DNA of 32,000 bases from the NCBI RefSeq assembly GCF_009734345.1, contig NZ_CP032551.1, positions 180,001-212,000 on the forward strand, in the 5' to 3' direction. Of the stretch, positions 15,639-30,734 are shown in pieces; positions within the stretch are counted from its first letter, which is position 1; each line of letters starts with the position of its first letter. The notes under the pieces were generated by a model. The model was not told the origin of the DNA and ran no database searches. It saw only the letters and a program-made list of their open reading frames with translations. Source of the DNA: Pseudidiomarina andamanensis (GTDB taxonomy: Bacteria > Pseudomonadota > Gammaproteobacteria > Enterobacterales > Alteromonadaceae). A program made the position numbers and the translations under genes.

Positions 15639-18275
15639 ATGGCAAAAGCGTTAGTTATTGTCGAGTCGCCAGCAAAAGCGAAGACAATTAATAAATATTT
15701 AGGGAATGATTTTGTGGTGAAGTCGAGCGTGGGTCACGTTCGCGACTTACCGACAAAATCAACCGCGACCGTCAAAACCAAGCCGCCGGCCGAAGTTCGA
15801 AAAATGACGCCGGAGCAAAAAGAAGCTTATCGGCAAGAGCGTGAGTTCCGAAAATTAGTGGCCCGAATGGGCATTGATCCGCAGCACGGCTGGGAAGCTC
15901 ACTACGAAGTGTTGCCCGGCAAAGAAAAGGTTGTGGCAGAACTGAAAAAGCTGGCAGCGAAAGCTGATGCTATTTACCTCGCAACGGATTTGGACCGCGA
16001 AGGGGAAGCCATTGCTTGGCACTTACGCGAACTGATTGGCGGCGATGACAGCCGGTTCCAGCGCGTGGTGTTTAACGAAATCACCAAAAAAGCCATTCAA
16101 GAAGCTTTCTCTCATCCGGCTGCTTTGAATATTGACCGTGTGAATGCACAGCAAACGCGTCGATTCCTCGATCGTGTTGTTGGCTTCATGGTGTCACCGT
16201 TATTGTGGAAGAAAATTGCGCGTGGGTTGTCAGCTGGGCGCGTACAATCCGTCGCGGTGCGCTTAGTAGTTGAGCGCGAACGCGAAATCAAAGCCTTTGT
16301 ACCAGAAGAATATTGGGATATTTACGCCGATTTATCGACGCAAAATAGTGATGCATTGCGTATGCAGGTGCAAAAGCACCTCGGCAAGACCTTTAAAGCG
16401 AACGATAAGGCCGCTGCCGACGCCGCTGTGGCTGCATTGAAGGGTGCCCAATACAAAGTCATAGACCGCGAAGATAAACCGACTAGCAGCCGTCCCTCGG
16501 CGCCGTTCATTACATCAACCCTGCAACAGGCCGCTAGTACGCGGTTAGGTTTCGGGGTGAAAAAGACCATGATGTTAGCGCAGCGTTTGTACGAAGCGGG
16601 TCATATTACCTACATGCGTACCGACTCAACCAACTTGAGCCAAGAGGCTGTGGCTACTTGTCGAGACTACATTGGCAAGAACTTCGGCAGCGATTATTTG
16701 CCAGCGAAACCGAACGTTTATGGCTCTAAGCAAAATGCACAAGAAGCGCACGAGGCCATTCGTCCTTCAAGCGTCGGCGTGAAGTCAGAAAGTTTGCGTG
16801 ATATGGAACGCGATGCACAGCGTTTGTATGAACTCATTTGGCGCCAATTTGTGGCGTGTCAAATGACGCCAGCTCAATACGATGCAACCACCATTTCCGT
16901 GCAAGCCGGTGATTATGAGCTGCGTGCCCGTGGGCGAGTGTTGCGCTTCCCTGGCTGGACCAAAGTGCAGCCGCCAGCGGGCTCGAAGAATAATGAAGAT
17001 GCAACCTTACCTGATGTGAAAAAAGGTGAAGAATTGGCTCTGCAACAGCTTGACCCGCAGCAACACTTTACCAAGCCGCCGGCGCGCTTTAGCGAAGCTT
17101 CGTTAGTCAAAGAGCTTGAAAAGCGCGGTATCGGCCGCCCATCAACCTATGCGTCAATTATTTCAACCATTCAAGATCGTGGCTATGTGCGGGTAGAAAA
17201 CCGCCGGTTCTACGCGGAGAAAATGGGTGAGATAGTCAATGACCGTTTGGTTGACAACTTCCCGCGTTTATTGAACTACAGTTTCACCGCTGAAATGGAA
17301 CAAGCGCTAGATGAGATTGCCGAAGGGAACCGCAATTGGAAATCGACATTAGATCAGTTCTACGACGATTTCAGTGCGAAATTACAGCAAGCCGAAATGA
17401 CCCCAGAAGAGGGCGGTATGCGCCCGAATCAAATGGTGCTGACCGACATTAAATGTCCGAAGTGCGGTCGTCCGATGGGTATTCGTACCGCATCAACCGG
17501 CGTGTTCTTGGGTTGTTCTGGCTACGAACTACCGCCAAAAGAGCGTTGCACGCAAACCATGAACCTGTTGCCAGGTGAAGAAGCCGTAAGCGTCAAAGAC
17601 GATGACGACGAAGCGGAAACCATGGCGCTGCGCGCGAAAAAACGTTGCCCGAAATGTGGTACGGCAATGGACAGTTATTTAATTGACCAAGAACGCAAAC
17701 TGCACGTGTGTGGTAATAACCCAGCGTGTGATGGCTATGTGGTTGAGCAGGGCGAATTCCGCATTAAAGGTTACGATGGGCCAGTGCTTGAATGTGACCG
17801 TTGTGGCAGTGATATGCAGTTGAAAACCGGCCGTTTTGGTAAGTATTTTGATTGTACCAACAGCGAGTGTAAGAACACCCGTAAGTTACTGAAAAACGGC
17901 CAACCAGCGCCACCAAAAGAAGATCCCGTGCCGTTCCCTGAACTGCCGTGTGAAGACTCGAACGCGTACTTCGTATTGCGTGACGGTGCGTCGGGTGTGT
18001 TTTTGTCAGCGAATACCTTCCCGCGTTCACGTGAAACCCGTGCGGTGAAAGTGAGTGAGCTGAAGCGCTTTAAAGATCGCATTCCAAGTAAGTTCCATTA
18101 CTTAGCGGAAGCGCCTGAAAAAGACGACGATGGCAACGAAGCCATTGTACGTTACAGCCGCAAGAACAAAGAACAGTACGTGATTACCGAAGTGAATGGT
18201 AAAGCGACAGGTTGGCAAGCGTTTTACTCTGGTGGTGTTTGGCGCGTCGAAGCAAAGAAGAATAAACGCAAGTAA
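15639..18275 (+). CDS. topA: DNA topoisomerase I
   Basis: 878 aa. It has the Toprim N-terminus [22 protein letters not shown], the active-site region ITYMRTDS, and C-terminal Cys4 zinc ribbons (CPKCGRPM..., CPKCGTAM..., CDRCGSDM...). Confidence 0.97.
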
Positions 18276-18295
18276 ACAAAGAAGCGAGAACCAAA

Positions 18296-19849
18296 GTGTT
18301 TGACTATCTTAGAGTGACTAATTTACGTGCTTTTAAAGACTCCGGAAAAATAAAACTTAATCCATTGACTATATTGGTGGGGAAGAATAGTTCCGGGAAA
18401 AGTACGTTAGCCCGTGTGTTGCCTTTGTTAAGACAATCTGTAGAGGTAAGTACTCGAGGACCAATTCTATGGTTTGGAAATAAATATGTTGATTTTGGTA
18501 GCTTCGCAACAGCAATAAACTCGAATGCAGATACTAAAGAGATAACTTTTGAAATAGGCTTGAAAACACTCCTAGGGCAATTCGTGTATTTATCTAACTC
18601 GAAAAAAAATAAAGATGATTTTAATCGAGAAATAAAGATTGCGCTCACTCTTTGTGATGATAATAAATCTACTAAATTGAAATCTTTTAGTGTAGTTAGT
18701 GACGATTTATCAATAGATGTAAGAAACACCTCTGGCTCCAAAGCGGTTATTGAATTGAACGGTGTTCAGGTAACTTCCTTATCTGCAACAATTGAAAATG
18801 CAATTGATTTTGGTTTACTTCCAGATTTAGCAATAGTTCTGGAGGGTGAAAGTAAATCTAAGAATTATTATTTTGATGATAATTCAAAATATAAATTAGA
18901 CCTTCTAAAAAAATACTCTGATAGTTATAAATTGAAATTCGAAAGTGAAGAATCTTCAAATAAATTCTATTCGGAGCTATTAGATATTACCGATTTATCA
19001 TTTTTTGGGTATAAATCTAATATAAATTATCTCGCTGAGCGGCATGGCATATTTGAAAGTGCTCTAAAACTAAATGATGAGCAGCTCAGGCAGATATGGA
19101 ATGATTCGGTAATATTAAATATTCCACACCTCATAATGATGGTTAATCATCTAATTCACGAGCAAATGAAGAATATTTCTTATGTTGCTCCAGTCCGAGC
19201 TTTTGCAGAAAGGTACTATAGATTTCAGGACCTGCAAGTAAAAGAACTAGATCATACAGGCTCGAATTTAGCAATGCTGCTTTTGTCGCTAAAAAATAAA
19301 CATTTATCTGATTTCAAAGGCTGGATTAAAAAACATTTAAGGTTTGAAATAAGTGTTGACCCAGTTGGTAATCATTATGCAATAAGCGTAAAACCAGAAG
19401 GCTATAAAAAGTTTCATAATTTAAGCGATATGGGATTTGGATTTTCGCAAATACTTCCAGTTGTTGTATCGATGTGGATGAGTACTAACACGAAGGCATC
19501 TCCGAGATTTAGATATTTTGGTGATGAAACTAATGTCGATAAAATAATAGTAATAGAGCAACCTGAATTGCATTTACATCCAGAGATGCAAGATATTTTA
19601 GCGTCCACAATAGTTAATGTTGCTAGCAATTATAAGAATTTAAGGATTAAGTTCTTAATTGAGACGCATAGTAAAACATTTATCGATGCAATAGGTCGCT
19701 GCATTCGAGCAAAGGAAATAGATTCAGATTCTGTATCCATTAATATCGTTGAGCATGAGGCAATTTCGGATACGTCGGTAGTAAAACAGTCAAGCTTTAA
19801 TGAACAGGGGCAACTGCTGAATTGGCCGCTTGGCTTTTTCTCGTCGTGA
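18296..19849 (+). CDS. ABC/AAA_21-type ATPase (DUF3696-like C-terminus); AriA-like or OLD-family ATPase component of a candidate defence pair
   Basis: GTG start 20 nt after the topA stop. The N-terminus MFDYLRVTNLRAFKDSGKIKLNPLTILVGKNSSGKST carries Walker A (18380-18406). A YVAPVR block follows, then the signature-like LSDMGFGFSQ (19421-19450). Walker B is KIIVIEQPELHLHP (19541-19582) and the H-loop is ETHS (19661-19672). The C-terminal NWPLGFF tail is typical, as I recall, of DUF3696-containing ATPases. About 230 aa of K/N/S-rich insert separates Walker A from the rest. Confidence 0.8.
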   Translation: MFDYLRVTNLRAFKDSGKIKLNPLTILVGKNSSGKSTLARVLPLLRQSVEVSTRGPILWFGNKYVDFGSFATAINSNADTKEITFEIGLKTLLGQFVYLSNSKKNKDDFNREIKIALTLCDDNKSTKLKSFSVVSDDLSIDVRNTSGSKAVIELNGVQVTSLSATIENAIDFGLLPDLAIVLEGESKSKNYYFDDNSKYKLDLLKKYSDSYKLKFESEESSNKFYSELLDITDLSFFGYKSNINYLAERHGIFESALKLNDEQLRQIWNDSVILNIPHLIMMVNHLIHEQMKNISYVAPVRAFAERYYRFQDLQVKELDHTGSNLAMLLLSLKNKHLSDFKGWIKKHLRFEISVDPVGNHYAISVKPEGYKKFHNLSDMGFGFSQILPVVVSMWMSTNTKASPRFRYFGDETNVDKIIVIEQPELHLHPEMQDILASTIVNVASNYKNLRIKFLIETHSKTFIDAIGRCIRAKEIDSDSVSINIVEHEAISDTSVVKQSSFNEQGQLLNWPLGFFSS

Positions 19850-19854
19850 TACTA

Positions 19855-21009
19855 ATGTTAATAGTTCTTAGATCGATTAATTTGATAAACAACAGCCAAT
19901 CTTCTTCTGAAAAGAATGTTGCGTTATATAGAATTATTAATGCTGCGATCGAACAGAAACATGCGGTAATTATCGATGACGTTCCGGAATCTTATAATCC
20001 GAAGAATTTTGGAAGATTAGGGGACTTTGTTGTAGGTCAAATTATCAACATTAGGGATATATATAGCGAAAATGAAGCTATGAAAACTTTGGTAAACAAG
20101 TTTTTAATTGTAGATTTTTCGTTAGATCGATTGGCAATTAATTTAGACAGTTATGGAAATTTGATTGTCGGGTACACTAAGCTTGTTCAATCTAACTTCC
20201 TAGAAAGTAGCAATCTTATTCTTGAAGATTTAAATGATAAAGAGGTTTACTATTCTTTTGTCAATTATTATTGCTATCACAATCGGATAAATAATTTTAA
20301 TTTCAAACTCGATTTCAGAGCTGGTGGTGGTAGTAGTTGTCGACGTCACTTCGATGAATCGATAGATGATAATAGACTGACGATTTGTATAGTTGATAGC
20401 GACAGAAGGCATCCTAATGGGCCATTGGGAAGTACAGCGCAACTATTTAGTAACGTTTTTGATAGAGAACAAGACTTTTGGTATCTCGAGATTCTTCCTC
20501 ATCACGAAGCCGAGAACATTATTCCGATTAGTGTATATAAAAAGGGATATCTCTTGTTGAAAGAGAGAAAGCGAGCACAGCTTCTTGAGTCAATTAAGAG
20601 CGTGTTATATGGCAGCACCGGCTCTGTCCGTTATTTTGATTTTAAGAAAGGTTTGACTGCATACCAATACGGGTTCTTGGAAAGTACCTATGGAGCCTAC
20701 TGGGAACATGTTATAAATGGTTTAGATATCAACGAGTCATGTTTGGGGTGTATAAGAAATGTTTCATCTTTTACTAGGATAAAAAAAGGCTGCTACCATT
20801 GTCCGAATAATACTAATTGCGTATTTATCCAAAGTATTTGCTGCGATGCAGCAACCACCCTTCAGGTAATCAAAAAAAAGCAGGTTGATTTGAATCGATT
20901 ATTTAATAGCGCTATGAGTGAAGCCCCCGCTCAGGTTGATGAGATTCTTAGAATTGGAAAGGTTCTATTTTCGTGGGGCTATGCGTCAAACTTTCAGTCT
21001 GCTTCCTAA
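19855..21009 (+). CDS. Toprim/DUF4435-like putative nuclease with a C-terminal Cys4 zinc-ribbon-like cluster; AriB-like effector candidate
   Basis: A 395-aa track ORF runs from TTG 19822. I prefer ATG 19855, 5 nt after the ATPase stop, but 19822 with a 28-nt overlap cannot be excluded. Three acidic motifs occur in Toprim-like order: IIDDVPE (19969-19989), CIVDSDRRHP with DSD at 20395-20403, and HHEAEN with EAEN at 20506-20517. A CxxC-x13-CxxC cluster is at 20740-20802. The domain assignment is by motif recognition only and is not HMM-verified. Confidence 0.6.
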   Translation: MLIVLRSINLINNSQSSSEKNVALYRIINAAIEQKHAVIIDDVPESYNPKNFGRLGDFVVGQIINIRDIYSENEAMKTLVNKFLIVDFSLDRLAINLDSYGNLIVGYTKLVQSNFLESSNLILEDLNDKEVYYSFVNYYCYHNRINNFNFKLDFRAGGGSSCRRHFDESIDDNRLTICIVDSDRRHPNGPLGSTAQLFSNVFDREQDFWYLEILPHHEAENIIPISVYKKGYLLLKERKRAQLLESIKSVLYGSTGSVRYFDFKKGLTAYQYGFLESTYGAYWEHVINGLDINESCLGCIRNVSSFTRIKKGCYHCPNNTNCVFIQSICCDAATTLQVIKKKQVDLNRLFNSAMSEAPAQVDEILRIGKVLFSWGYASNFQSAS

Positions 21010-21037
21010 AATCGATAACTTTGCAATCGTATGGTTA

Positions 21038-21205
21038 TCATTCGCTATTAGCTACATCTGCGATTAATTCGCTCCTTACTATAACAACCTGATTATCCGC
21101 CTCAAATCTCAATTTCACTTGTTTTCCTTCAATCTTAACGACGCAAATTCTAATTTTATTATCGATCACAATCTCTTCACCGATCTTTCTCGTTAATGTC
21201 AACAT
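21038..21205 (-). CDS. CsrA/RsmA-family RNA-binding protein paralog (55 aa), island-encoded
   Basis: Not in the ORF track because it is shorter than 60 aa. My hand translation gives 56 codons: MLTLTRKIGEEIVIDNKIRICVVKIEGKQVKLRFEADNQVVIVRSELIADVANSE*. A gap-free alignment to E. coli CsrA ([47 protein letters not shown]...) gives 16 identities in residues 1-47. These include the RNA-binding positions L2, L4, R6 and R44, with K7 in place of R7. GGAG lies 10 nt upstream of the ATG. Confidence 0.72.
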   Translation of the reverse strand: MLTLTRKIGEEIVIDNKIRICVVKIEGKQVKLRFEADNQVVIVRSELIADVANSE

Positions 21206-21317
21206 GTCCTTGATTCTCCGTTAAAATAAATATTGTAAAGGAAAGTCTAGGGCATATCGTAAAATTAAGACATCACTACGGAAGTTGTTGGTTATTGTCG
21301 TACATTGTAGTCAACTA

Positions 21318-22178
21318 TTAAAGCGGCGCATGCCAAGTATCACATGCCTGCAAGGTGTTCTGCATCAGCGTTGCTACGGTCATCGGGCCGACGCCGCCTG
21401 GCACTGGGGTAATGTATGAGGCGCGCTGCTCAGCAGTTTCAAACTCAATATCACCAACGAGTTTTCCAGAAGGCAAACGGTTAATACCCACATCAATCAC
21501 TACGGCGCCCGGTTTGACCCATTCGCCAGGAATGAAGTTTGGCTTGCCAACAGCAACGACAAGAACATCAGCACGTTGCACGTGCTCTTTTAAATCATTA
21601 GTAAAGCGGTGACAAACGGTTGTGGTGGCACCAGCCAGCAACAACTCTAGGCTCATTGGGCGGCCAACAATGTTGGAAGCGCCAACCACCACGGCGTTTT
21701 TGCCATGCAAGTCTAAGCCAATGGAATCGAGTAGAGTGATCACGCCGCGCGGGGTGCATGGGCGTAATGCCGGGTTACGTTGGGCTAAACGGCCCATGTT
21801 AAACGGGTGAAAGCCGTCAACGTCTTTGAATGGATTAATGCGCTCGAGAATGGCTTGTGCATCTAAGCCCTGCGGCAATGGCAGTTGCACCAAGATACCA
21901 TCAATTTCAGCATCGTTATTGAGTTGGTCGATTAAGGCTTCGAGTTCTGCTTGTGTGGTTGTGGCTGGCAAGTCGAATGCTTTAGACACAATGCCTACTT
22001 CTTTGCAGGCGTTGCGCTTACTGCCAACGTAAACTGCAGAGGCTGGGTCTTCACCCACCATGACGACGGCAAGGCCGGGGGCGCGAGCACCGGCAGCAAG
22101 GCGTTTGGCAACCCCTTGTTTTACTTCATCACGAACTTGTTGAGCTACTTGTTTACCATCAATACGTTGCGCAGTCAT
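21318..22178 (-). CDS. folD: Bifunctional 5,10-methylene-THF dehydrogenase / methenyl-THF cyclohydrolase
   Basis: [19 protein letters not shown] aligns with E. coli FolD MAAKIIDGKTIAQQVRSEV. I therefore prefer the ATG at the complement of 22176-22178, with AAGGTG upstream, over the GTG at 22190. The motifs [13 protein letters not shown] and [10 protein letters not shown] are present. Confidence 0.94.
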
Positions 22179-22355
22179 TGCTGTGAACACCTTATTCGGT
22201 TAAATGCTGATGTGTCGAGTTCATGGGCTGCTATTTTCGCATGTTTTTTGCTAAGGTTGTAGCGTCGATTAAACGGGTACTGAAATACGGAATGAATAAA
22301 TTTCAGTCAGCCTGTTGGTATTTTCAGCAGTCGGACATTTTGGGCAAAAAAATGT

Positions 22356-22443: not shown

Positions 22444-22520
22444 CGGCGAGTAGCGCAGCTTGGTAGCGCACTTGTTTTGGGTACAAGGGGTCGCTGGTTC
22501 GAATCCAGTCTCGCCGACCA
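22444..22520 (+). tRNA. tRNA-Pro (anticodon UGG)
   Basis: I hand-folded a 77-nt cloverleaf. The acceptor is CGGCGAG/CTCGCCG and the anticodon arm is CTTGT-TTTGGGT-ACAAG. The T-loop is TTCGAAT and CCA is encoded. It is close to E. coli proM. Confidence 0.92.
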
Positions 22521-22538
22521 TTTCTTAAAGTGCGAAAT

Positions 22539-22615
<77 letters not shown>

Positions 22616-22642
22616 TTAAAGCCCTGGCACAACATATGAAGT

Positions 22643-22719
22643 GGTGGCTGTAGCTCAGTTGGTAGAGCCCCGGATTGTGATTCCGGTTGTCGTGGGTTCA
22701 AGTCCCATCAGCCACCCCA
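22643..22719 (+). tRNA. tRNA-His (anticodon GUG) with the encoded extra 5' G(-1)
   Basis: 77 nt. The sequence GGTGGCTGTAGCTCAGTTGGTAGAGCCCCGGATTGTGATTCCGG... is nearly identical to E. coli hisR. CCA is encoded. Confidence 0.92.
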
Positions 22720-22757
22720 TTTCTCTGCTTTTCAGCATTATCTCAAAAATTTGAAGT

Positions 22758-22834
22758 CGGCGAGTAGCGCAGCTTGGTAGCGCACTTGTTTTGGGTACAA
22801 GGGGTCGCTGGTTCGAATCCAGTCTCGCCGACCA
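22758..22834 (+). tRNA. tRNA-Pro (anticodon UGG), second identical copy
   Basis: It is base-for-base identical to 22444-22520. The identity extends 2 nt on each side (22442-22522 = 22756-22836). Confidence 0.92.
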
Positions 22835-30657: not shown

Positions 30658-30734
30658 GGAGCGGTAGTTCAGCTGGTTAGAATACCGGCCTGTCACGCCG
30701 GGGGTCGCGGGTTCGAATCCCGTCCGTTCCGCCA
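30658..30734 (+). tRNA. tRNA-Asp (anticodon GUC)
   Basis: 77 nt. GGAGCGGTAGTTCAGCTGGTTAGAATACCGGCCTGTCACGCCGGGGGTCGCGGGTTCGAATCCCGTCCGTTCCGCCA is close to E. coli aspT. It starts 7 nt after the hupB stop. Confidence 0.92.

Follow-up and report, generated by a model that had tools for sequence, protein, structure and literature searches.

The sequence under study, referred to below as the window, is a stretch of 32,000 nucleotides (nt) from contig NZ_CP032551.1 of Pseudidiomarina andamanensis. Between the topA and folD genes, the window carries a compact cassette composed of an ABC-type ATPase gene, a gene for an uncharacterized partner protein and, on the opposite strand, a small gene whose product resembles the RNA-binding regulator CsrA. 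The gene order reads astB(-), topA(+), ATPase(+), partner(+), CsrA-like(-) and folD(-), followed by four transfer RNA (tRNA) genes and a gene encoding a GAF-GGDEF protein. The coordinates of these features are collected in Table 1. As judged from gene order, the physical coupling of the CsrA-like gene to the ATPase/partner pair is supported, at two loci only, and the three-gene layout may represent a rare, undescribed three-gene system.

Table 1. Features of the cassette and of its surroundings (positions in the window)
Feature	Position	Strand	Description
topA	15639-18275	+	
Tandem duplication	18250-18297		imperfect, 24 nt, 71% identity; last topA codons and 20-nt spacer before ATPase start
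Cassette	18276..21317	.	3,042 bp, topA-folD interval; holds ATPase, partner and CsrA-like gene only
ABC-type ATPase, NsnB-like	18296..19849	+	517 aa; AAA_15/AAA_21 and C-terminal DUF3696 helix; starts 20 nt past topA stop
Partner, putative effector	19855..21009	+	384 aa; uncharacterized family; QGT94815.1 'hypothetical protein' / WP_156265734.1
Gap between convergent stops of partner and CsrA-like gene	21010..21037	.	28 bp; no terminator-like hairpin
CsrA-like gene	21205->21038	-	55 aa; ATG start; TGA stop then TAA; translation MLTLTRKIGEEIVIDNKIRICVVKIEGKQVKLRFEADNQVVIVRSELIADVANSE
Leader hairpin (predicted)	21200..21259	-	pairs Shine-Dalgarno region (GGAGAAUCAAGGAC) and AUG of CsrA-like gene with upstream sequence
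Spacer, folD stop to CsrA-like start	21206..21317	-	112 bp, 33.9% GC
folD	21318-22190	-	
tRNA cluster Pro(tgg)-Arg(tct)-His(gtg)-Pro(tgg)	22444-22834	+	between folD and GAF-GGDEF gene
tRNA-Asp	30658-30734		

A sequence-only reading of the window had proposed that the small minus-strand open reading frame (ORF) encodes a CsrA-family protein, which is borne out by comparison with the Pfam CsrA profile PF02599. The product scores 65.7 bits (cutoff 27, E 3.6e-18) and covers profile positions 1-51 of 53. It also matches the PHROG family phrog_9500, 'CsrA-like regulator' (2e-13), and is aligned by phmmer to the solved CsrA/RsmE structures 2jpp, 1y00 and 7yr6 in a colinear and gap-free manner over positions 1-49 (E ~1e-5). 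A Shine-Dalgarno GGAG is located about 10 nt 5' of the start codon, and six-frame translation of the whole window reveals this ORF as its sole CsrA-like one. The gene had been described as unannotated, which holds for the ORF track used by that reading only: GenBank and RefSeq list the identical protein from P. andamanensis as QGT94816.1 / WP_156265735.1, 'carbon storage regulator'.

Residue frequencies were calculated from 200 CsrA domains originating from the 150 closest database representatives. Residues L2, L4, R6, K7, V40, I42, R44, E46 and L47 of the window protein each correspond to the majority state or to a common state, and L2, L4, R6, R44 and E46, all of them kept, are near-invariant in this set. 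Positions 2, 4, 6, 7, 40, 42, 44 and 47, designated by the sequence-only reading as the RNA-binding surface of E. coli CsrA, carry the residues that had been claimed. The GxxAP turn (G33, A36, P37), a conserved signature of the family that is no formal criterion of membership, is replaced by RFEAD, again as claimed. Position 33 is occupied by glycine in 139 of the sampled domains and by arginine in 10, position 37 by proline in 180 and by aspartate in 4. The two replacements R33 and D37 are combined in none of the 200, each being found singly in other intact domains. The C-terminal helix had also been described as truncated. The shortening is only slight, as the protein extends 11 residues beyond R44 and the PDB includes CsrA chains that are 49 and 55 residues long (5z38_E, 7yr6_E).

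The protein remains below the cutoffs of the NCBIfam equivalogs devoted to housekeeping csrA, with 52.8 vs 70.1 bits for TIGR00202, 47.9 vs 73 for NF002469 and 44.3 vs 106 for NF001844. Its ORF displays a guanine plus cytosine (GC) content of 35.1%, and of 35.7% at third codon positions (GC3). In Gammaproteobacteria, the housekeeping csrA is typically found downstream of alaS, in a conserved core-genome context. The present gene lies instead between folD and the foreign ATPase/partner pair. By sequence comparison, it is a genuine CsrA-family paralog of accessory type and not the housekeeping equivalog; the ORF is best explained as an intact and horizontally acquired member of the CsrA/RsmA family, whose proteins are small, dimeric and RNA-binding. 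The proposal that it is cargo of a low-GC island is thereby upheld by the composition, by the equivalog scores and by the fact that related genomes hold no counterpart.

An intact-looking gene may nevertheless be degenerate, a former piece of phage or mobile-element cargo now in decay. In favor of this count the loss of Gly33 and Pro37, the most conserved of the family, the small size of the protein, the lack of a recognizable promoter and the occurrence of the exact sequence in one species only. This explanation is considered very improbable, given the open frame with its good Shine-Dalgarno and ATG, the high Pfam score, the presence of the family consensus at all the RNA-contact residues listed above and the occurrence of R33 or D37 in other intact domains. 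A diverged and intact counterpart at the same position of a second locus, described below, also speaks against decay.

A word-indexed search of 5.8 billion proteins retrieved the identical P. andamanensis protein only, and a HMMER scan of 1.84 billion representatives returned 1,839 family matches, the best single-domain ones displaying 61-64% identity. There is thus no group of orthologs to survey. The nearest CsrA relatives reside in a phage replication module (L094/L095), on a Planctomycete-like chromosome, on another chromosome and in a helix-turn-helix (HTH)/phosphoesterase neighborhood; none of the contexts examined places an AAA_15 ATPase beside them. A scan of viral contigs with the window protein detected one phage locus, at 56% identity. 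Stand-alone CsrA homologs are also carried by Legionella conjugative plasmids and Vibrio phages.

Two side observations concern these relatives. Contig L108 (1-991) harbors a 63-residue CsrA gene which shares the MLTLTRK start of the window protein and is flanked by a convergent HTH (HigA-like) ORF, with a 4-bp overlap, and by a divergent metallophosphoesterase-like ORF; it is a further small CsrA gene in an accessory-looking context. In addition, many of the best matches to the CsrA protein (P0006, P0007, P0010-P0012, P0064, P0091 and others) are single chains of 100-310 residues with two to four tandem CsrA domains, which gives them the appearance of CsrA 'dimers' joined covalently. The EAD variant of the GxxAP turn is present in some of the tandem domains.

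The ATPase is recorded in GenBank as QGT94814.1, 'AAA family ATPase'. It displays the motifs GKNSSGKST (Walker A), IEQPELHLHP and IETHS, and matches the Pfam profiles AAA_15 (1.1e-23), AAA_21 (3e-16) and DUF3696 (1.1e-4; 22.7 bits for a cutoff of 22). When compared to the PADLOC models, the best match is NsnB (1.3e-47), followed by PDC-M55A (9e-44), HEC-03B (6e-30) and AriA (1.3e-26), with GajA and PtuA matches as well. These motifs and profiles identify it as an ABC ATPase of the OLD type that ends in a DUF3696 tail.

The partner protein has no match in Pfam, PADLOC, NCBIfam, PHROG or the PDB sequences. Its start was set at ATG 19855 and not at TTG 19822, as indicated by the alignment of homologs and by WP_156265734.1, to which it is identical. 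Few homologs were found: they amount to four clusters in a set of 5.8 billion proteins, with six loci from metagenomes, five from plasmids and a single one from a Pf-like phage. A further candidate, P0158, was retrieved as a cluster mate of the partner and rejected as spurious, its contigs bearing no similarity to the window. Scans of viral contigs with the partner alignment, the ATPase, the closest partner homolog P0002 and the CsrA protein of its contig L098 found nothing. Eight partner homologs share invariant acidic motifs, namely E124/D128, D181-x-D183 and E218-x-E220-N221. A Cys-rich insert of about 30 residues (CxxC...C...C...C) is common only to the window partner and to P0002.

This partner had been designated as a Toprim protein, an assignment which stays unconfirmed. 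The motif series E...DxD...ExEN is compatible, at the sequence level, with a Toprim-like nuclease, but no match to Toprim, DUF4435 or HNH profiles was obtained and the hhalign comparison to P2 Old was negative (probability 0.2%). The AlphaFold2 (AF2) model of the partner reaches a mean predicted local distance difference test (pLDDT) score of 51.7, and fold matches are unreliable for that reason; the best Foldseek match of this low-confidence model was retron Eco2, with an E of 2.9e-3 but a template modeling (TM) score of 0.18, and GajA appeared at rank 12.

An AAA_15/21 ATPase gene is located directly upstream of the partner homolog in all the loci whose upstream sequence is covered, and such pairs are found on plasmids, in a Pf-like phage and beside Tn7-like genes. 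The partner is fast-evolving and presumably an effector controlled by the ATPase. ABC-ATPase/effector pairs constitute a well-known class of anti-phage systems, and the description of the present genes as an ATPase and effector pair of defense type appears reasonable from homology and from the mobile-element contexts. Two of the distant pairs deserve mention on their own account. In Pseudomonas phage 62-2 (L100, OR621022.1, 172-2808), a filamentous phage (Tubulavirales) with a genome of 12.6 kb, the pair bears the annotations 'rad50 ATPase' and 'putative OLD family nuclease' and is found at one end of the genome, beside repressor and excisionase genes, which suggests that temperate phages carry members of the pair family as accessory cargo. 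On contig L001 (1-8304), the pair lies directly downstream of TnsA, Mu-type transposase, TniB and TniQ (Tn7-like) genes and of an AAA ATPase and S8 peptidase pair; a Tn7-like transposon seems to carry it as cargo.

The evidence for coupling originates from the closest homolog of the partner. P0002 is 36% identical to it over the full length and is encoded by metagenomic contig L098, a sequence of 1,615 bp from the Logan run SRR27540940 whose GC content (34.1%) matches that of the cassette. The contig contains the C-terminus of the ATPase (68% identical to that of the window), the partner gene and, in convergent orientation, a 72-residue CsrA-family ORF reaching 69.5 bits with PF02599. The CsrA-family and partner ORFs overlap tail-to-tail by 52 bp (L098 1367-1418); owing to this overlap, the last ~17 residues of the L098 CsrA are antisense to the conserved C-terminal SWG...AS motif of the partner. 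Over 48 residues, the CsrA proteins of the two loci display 46% identity, and both carry the rare T3 (3% of the 200 domains) and I48 (7%). Neither has G33, and the turn of the L098 protein reads S-I-D-A-P where that of the window reads R-F-E-A-D. The CsrA gene and the Cys-rich insert of the partner occur together in 2 of 2 loci, the insert being absent from the 6 distant partners that were aligned.

In a first survey, none of seven pair loci and of six loci from metagenomes contained a CsrA-like ORF, from which it was provisionally concluded that no coupling exists; this was reversed by the L098 contig. The sequence-only reading had placed the CsrA-like gene convergent with the plus-strand pair, as it is, and had suggested a physical coupling to be looked for in the neighborhoods of homologs. 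That suggestion is sustained in part: L098 repeats the convergent arrangement, but eleven more distant pair loci do not contain any CsrA-like ORF when scanned with the family hidden Markov model (HMM) over six-frame ORFs of at least 25 residues. These eleven distinct loci are drawn from L001-L007, L088-L093 and L099-L101 (plasmid/phage), and 8 of the 11 cover at least 0.36 kb past the partner stop. Given their lack of a CsrA-like gene, the latter is best viewed as an add-on of one sub-lineage and not as a general component.

The cassette itself bears the marks of acquired DNA. Its GC content is ~35% (about 34-36% for genes and spacers), compared with about 48-52% for the flanking genes; individual values are 33.8% for the ATPase, 35.9% for the partner, 50.5% for topA and 52.2% for folD. 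The folD-anchored loci of 80 genomes, including 34 Pseudidiomarina loci, were compared, and a CsrA-like ORF near folD was found in none of them. Nucleotide similarity to the closest relatives, whose FolD proteins are 98% and 97% identical, ends at 21318-21321, which is the folD stop codon. Most Pseudidiomarina genomes display a Tad pilus locus downstream of folD, a locus absent from the window. In the Pseudidiomarina metagenome-assembled genome (MAG) EA13-11 (L015, 8874-16725), the folD-topA interval is filled with other low-GC (37.7%) cargo, consisting of a 1,219-residue YobI-like/KAP P-loop NTPase and of ORFs of 653 and 102 residues without Pfam match. From these comparisons, the interval behaves like a cargo hotspot. 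The low GC, the end of similarity at the folD stop and the differing cargo of relatives together indicate that the cassette is foreign DNA inserted in a variable interval, with the CsrA-like gene inside it.

No convincing direct or inverted repeats flank the cassette edges, no integrase was found with the cassette, and its DNA matched nothing in the plasmid and phage collections searched. The tandem duplication listed in Table 1, a possible insertion scar, is located exactly where the low-GC cassette begins on its left side. The tRNA cluster, which folD separates from the cassette, is kept in related Pseudidiomarina genomes, and both of its tRNA-Pro copies match the same stretches of these genomes, with 100% identity over 81 nt. 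The window also contains a tRNA-Asp gene (Table 1).

As to the role of the CsrA-like protein, the explanation that we prefer, tentatively and at a likelihood somewhat below even, is that of an element devoted to the post-transcriptional control of the cassette, acting as a brake or a tuner. Coupling is favored because the genes are tightly packed, with a gap of 28 bp in the window and an overlap of 52 bp in L098. By analogy with its family, the protein would form the usual homodimer and bind GGA-type RNA sites, GGA being the core CsrA recognition motif. The gene would be transcribed alone, from the strand opposite to the pair. Its own ribosome-binding site lies inside a predicted hairpin: the RNA of 21270-21180 (-) folds at -19.2 kcal/mol (z -3.09), and none of 200 shuffled sequences folds as well. 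The leader contains only two GGA motifs, both around the Shine-Dalgarno and inside this hairpin, a disposition that could, if the predicted structure forms, permit CsrA-like autoregulation or structure-gated translation. The atypical residues T3, R33 and D37 and the short tail further suggest an altered RNA specificity, or an escape from the CsrA antagonists of the host. No consensus promoter or terminator is present in the spacer between folD and the CsrA-like gene, and read-through from folD is possible for that reason; since no terminator-like hairpin separates the convergent stops, the convergent transcripts probably overlap. Two further observations bear on RNA elements in general: GGA is under-represented in the whole window when both strands are counted (441 vs 678 +/- 21 in dinucleotide-preserving shuffles), and an Rfam scan of the window returned tRNAs only, with no CsrB/RsmY-type decoy RNA.

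A number of observations weigh against such a control function. In the window, the region from -60 to +30 around the start codon is devoid of GGA for the ATPase as for the partner, so that the canonical brake model, translational repression at the ribosome-binding sites of the pair, is not supported; a single GGA precedes the start of the L098 partner, and the window does not conserve it. The L098 CsrA leader, of which 30 nt are available, does not contain GGA, and autoregulation is not visibly conserved. No consensus promoter or terminator exceeds shuffle expectation. R33 and D37 stand where the family has its most conserved Gly and Pro and could impair function rather than retune it. The triad is limited to two loci, one of which is a single 1.6-kb metagenomic contig, and the eleven more distant pairs do without it. 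The window and L098 CsrA proteins are not mutual best matches, occupying ranks 126 and 248 of 261 sampled CsrAs. Finally, a defense function is ascribed to the pair by homology only. The case should be considered a lead and not a finding, resting as it does on two loci.

Several of these points would be equally accounted for if the CsrA-like gene were independent cargo, acting on the Csr/Rsm regulon of the host as plasmid RsmQ, the CsrT of a Legionella integrative and conjugative element (ICE) or phage CsrA-like proteins may do, in which case the L098 layout would be mere inherited synteny. This explanation is possible, though less likely than the preferred one. Stand-alone CsrA homologs are common on plasmids, phages and ICEs (PMC7366521; Legionella plasmids, Vibrio phages, L094/L095), and the gene lies on a different strand from the pair, with a Shine-Dalgarno to itself. 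The eleven pair loci devoid of a CsrA gene and the missing GGA at the start codons of the pair also fit such independence. The 68% identity of the ATPase C-terminus between the two triads counts here as well, and against a control element, because triads this similar may have separated so recently that their common layout is passively inherited. Independence is harder to reconcile with the abutting convergent placement, which has been kept though the partner is at 36% and the CsrA at 46% identity, with the coincidence of the CsrA gene and the Cys-rich insert, and with a cassette that holds nothing else.

The same coincidence would find a direct meaning if the CsrA-like dimer were a sensor, adaptor or antitoxin-like subunit of an ATPase-effector complex, perhaps docked on the Cys-rich insert. 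It would either detect the phage RNA or proteins by which it is titrated, or guide or protect the RNA substrates of the effector, and would take the place held by the NsnA sensor in the Menshen system, itself proposed to consist of a sensor, an ATPase transducer and an effector (PMC12065111). An NsnB-like ATPase is indeed present without a ParB-DUF262 NsnA gene; the insert and the CsrA gene co-occur at both loci, where the insert is missing from the 6 distant partners and the gene from the 11 loci; and the missing GGA at the starts of the pair speaks against a simple translational repressor. CsrA is moreover controlled by protein partners such as FliW and CesT, which counts in favor of a subunit. 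This explanation is nonetheless unlikely. Convergent and separately transcribed genes are unusual for stoichiometric subunits, the sample is composed of two loci and, to our knowledge, every characterized member of the CsrA family is an RNA regulator.

A bolder version may be formulated, which we regard as distinctly improbable: the triad would be an undescribed anti-phage system in which a CsrA-family dimer is the sensing or licensing subunit of the NsnB-like ATPase and its nuclease-type effector and docks on the Cys-rich insert of the latter, the titration of the dimer by a phage RNA or factor releasing or activating the effector. It would then provide the first CsrA-family protein with an immune, and not a regulatory, role. 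Should the link be functional, it could reveal a safety catch that restrains a toxic immune effector at the post-transcriptional level, or else an input by which an ATPase-gated nuclease senses RNA. As the system is composed of three genes in 3 kb, it is directly testable.

CsrA-family proteins are known as global regulators. Literature searches returned no described link between a CsrA-family protein and an ABC-ATPase/effector pair, and the cassette can be compared to known systems from both sides. PARIS (AriA/AriB), Septu (PtuA/PtuB), Gabija (GajA) and P2 Old resemble it in having an OLD-type ABC ATPase beside a separate effector that it probably controls, but the window partner lacks the DUF4435, Toprim or HNH match, and we know of no CsrA-family component in any of them.

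Menshen (NsnA-NsnB-NsnC) comes closer. The window ATPase displays the NsnB architecture, AAA_15 plus DUF3696, and is followed by a variable effector-like gene as NsnB is by NsnC (PMC12065111). In ATPases of the NsnB type, DUF3696 is the proposed means by which nuclease effectors are held and regulated (PMC12065111). There are differences: no NsnA (ParB-DUF262) gene is present, the three genes of the cassette being devoid of DUF262 or ParB match, and the partner matches no NsnC model, NsnC combining an N-terminal inactive-PIN domain and a C-terminal nuclease. The third gene of the window is a convergent CsrA-family gene, and the Menshen survey never mentions CsrA (PMC12065111).

With the housekeeping CsrA/RsmA proteins (E. 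coli CsrA, Pseudomonas RsmA/RsmE), the small protein shares the Pfam family, the gap-free alignment over positions 1-49 and the beta1 and beta5 residues, with K7 for R7, I42 for V42 and L47 for I47. It differs from them by its length of 55 residues, its scores below the equivalog cutoffs, the rare T3, R33 and D37 and its location in a foreign low-GC cassette. The mobile paralogs are the more natural company. Plasmids, phages and ICEs are documented carriers of CsrA homologs, but for no such homolog has an action on the carrying element been demonstrated, and the role of the plasmid ones is described as obscure (PMC7366521). The plasmid-borne RsmQ is described as taking global translational control in its host (PMC9928087). 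The Legionella ICE and plasmid proteins of CsrT type, the Pseudomonas plasmid RsmQ/RsmH/RsmE proteins and PHROG 9500 are, like the window protein, small accessory homologs on moving DNA, and short forms of 52-55 residues exist among the phage CsrA-like regulators. Their identity to the window protein is 33-56%, and none of those sampled adjoins an AAA_15 ATPase; the window gene has a defense-like ATPase/effector pair for neighbors, and not conjugation or replication genes.

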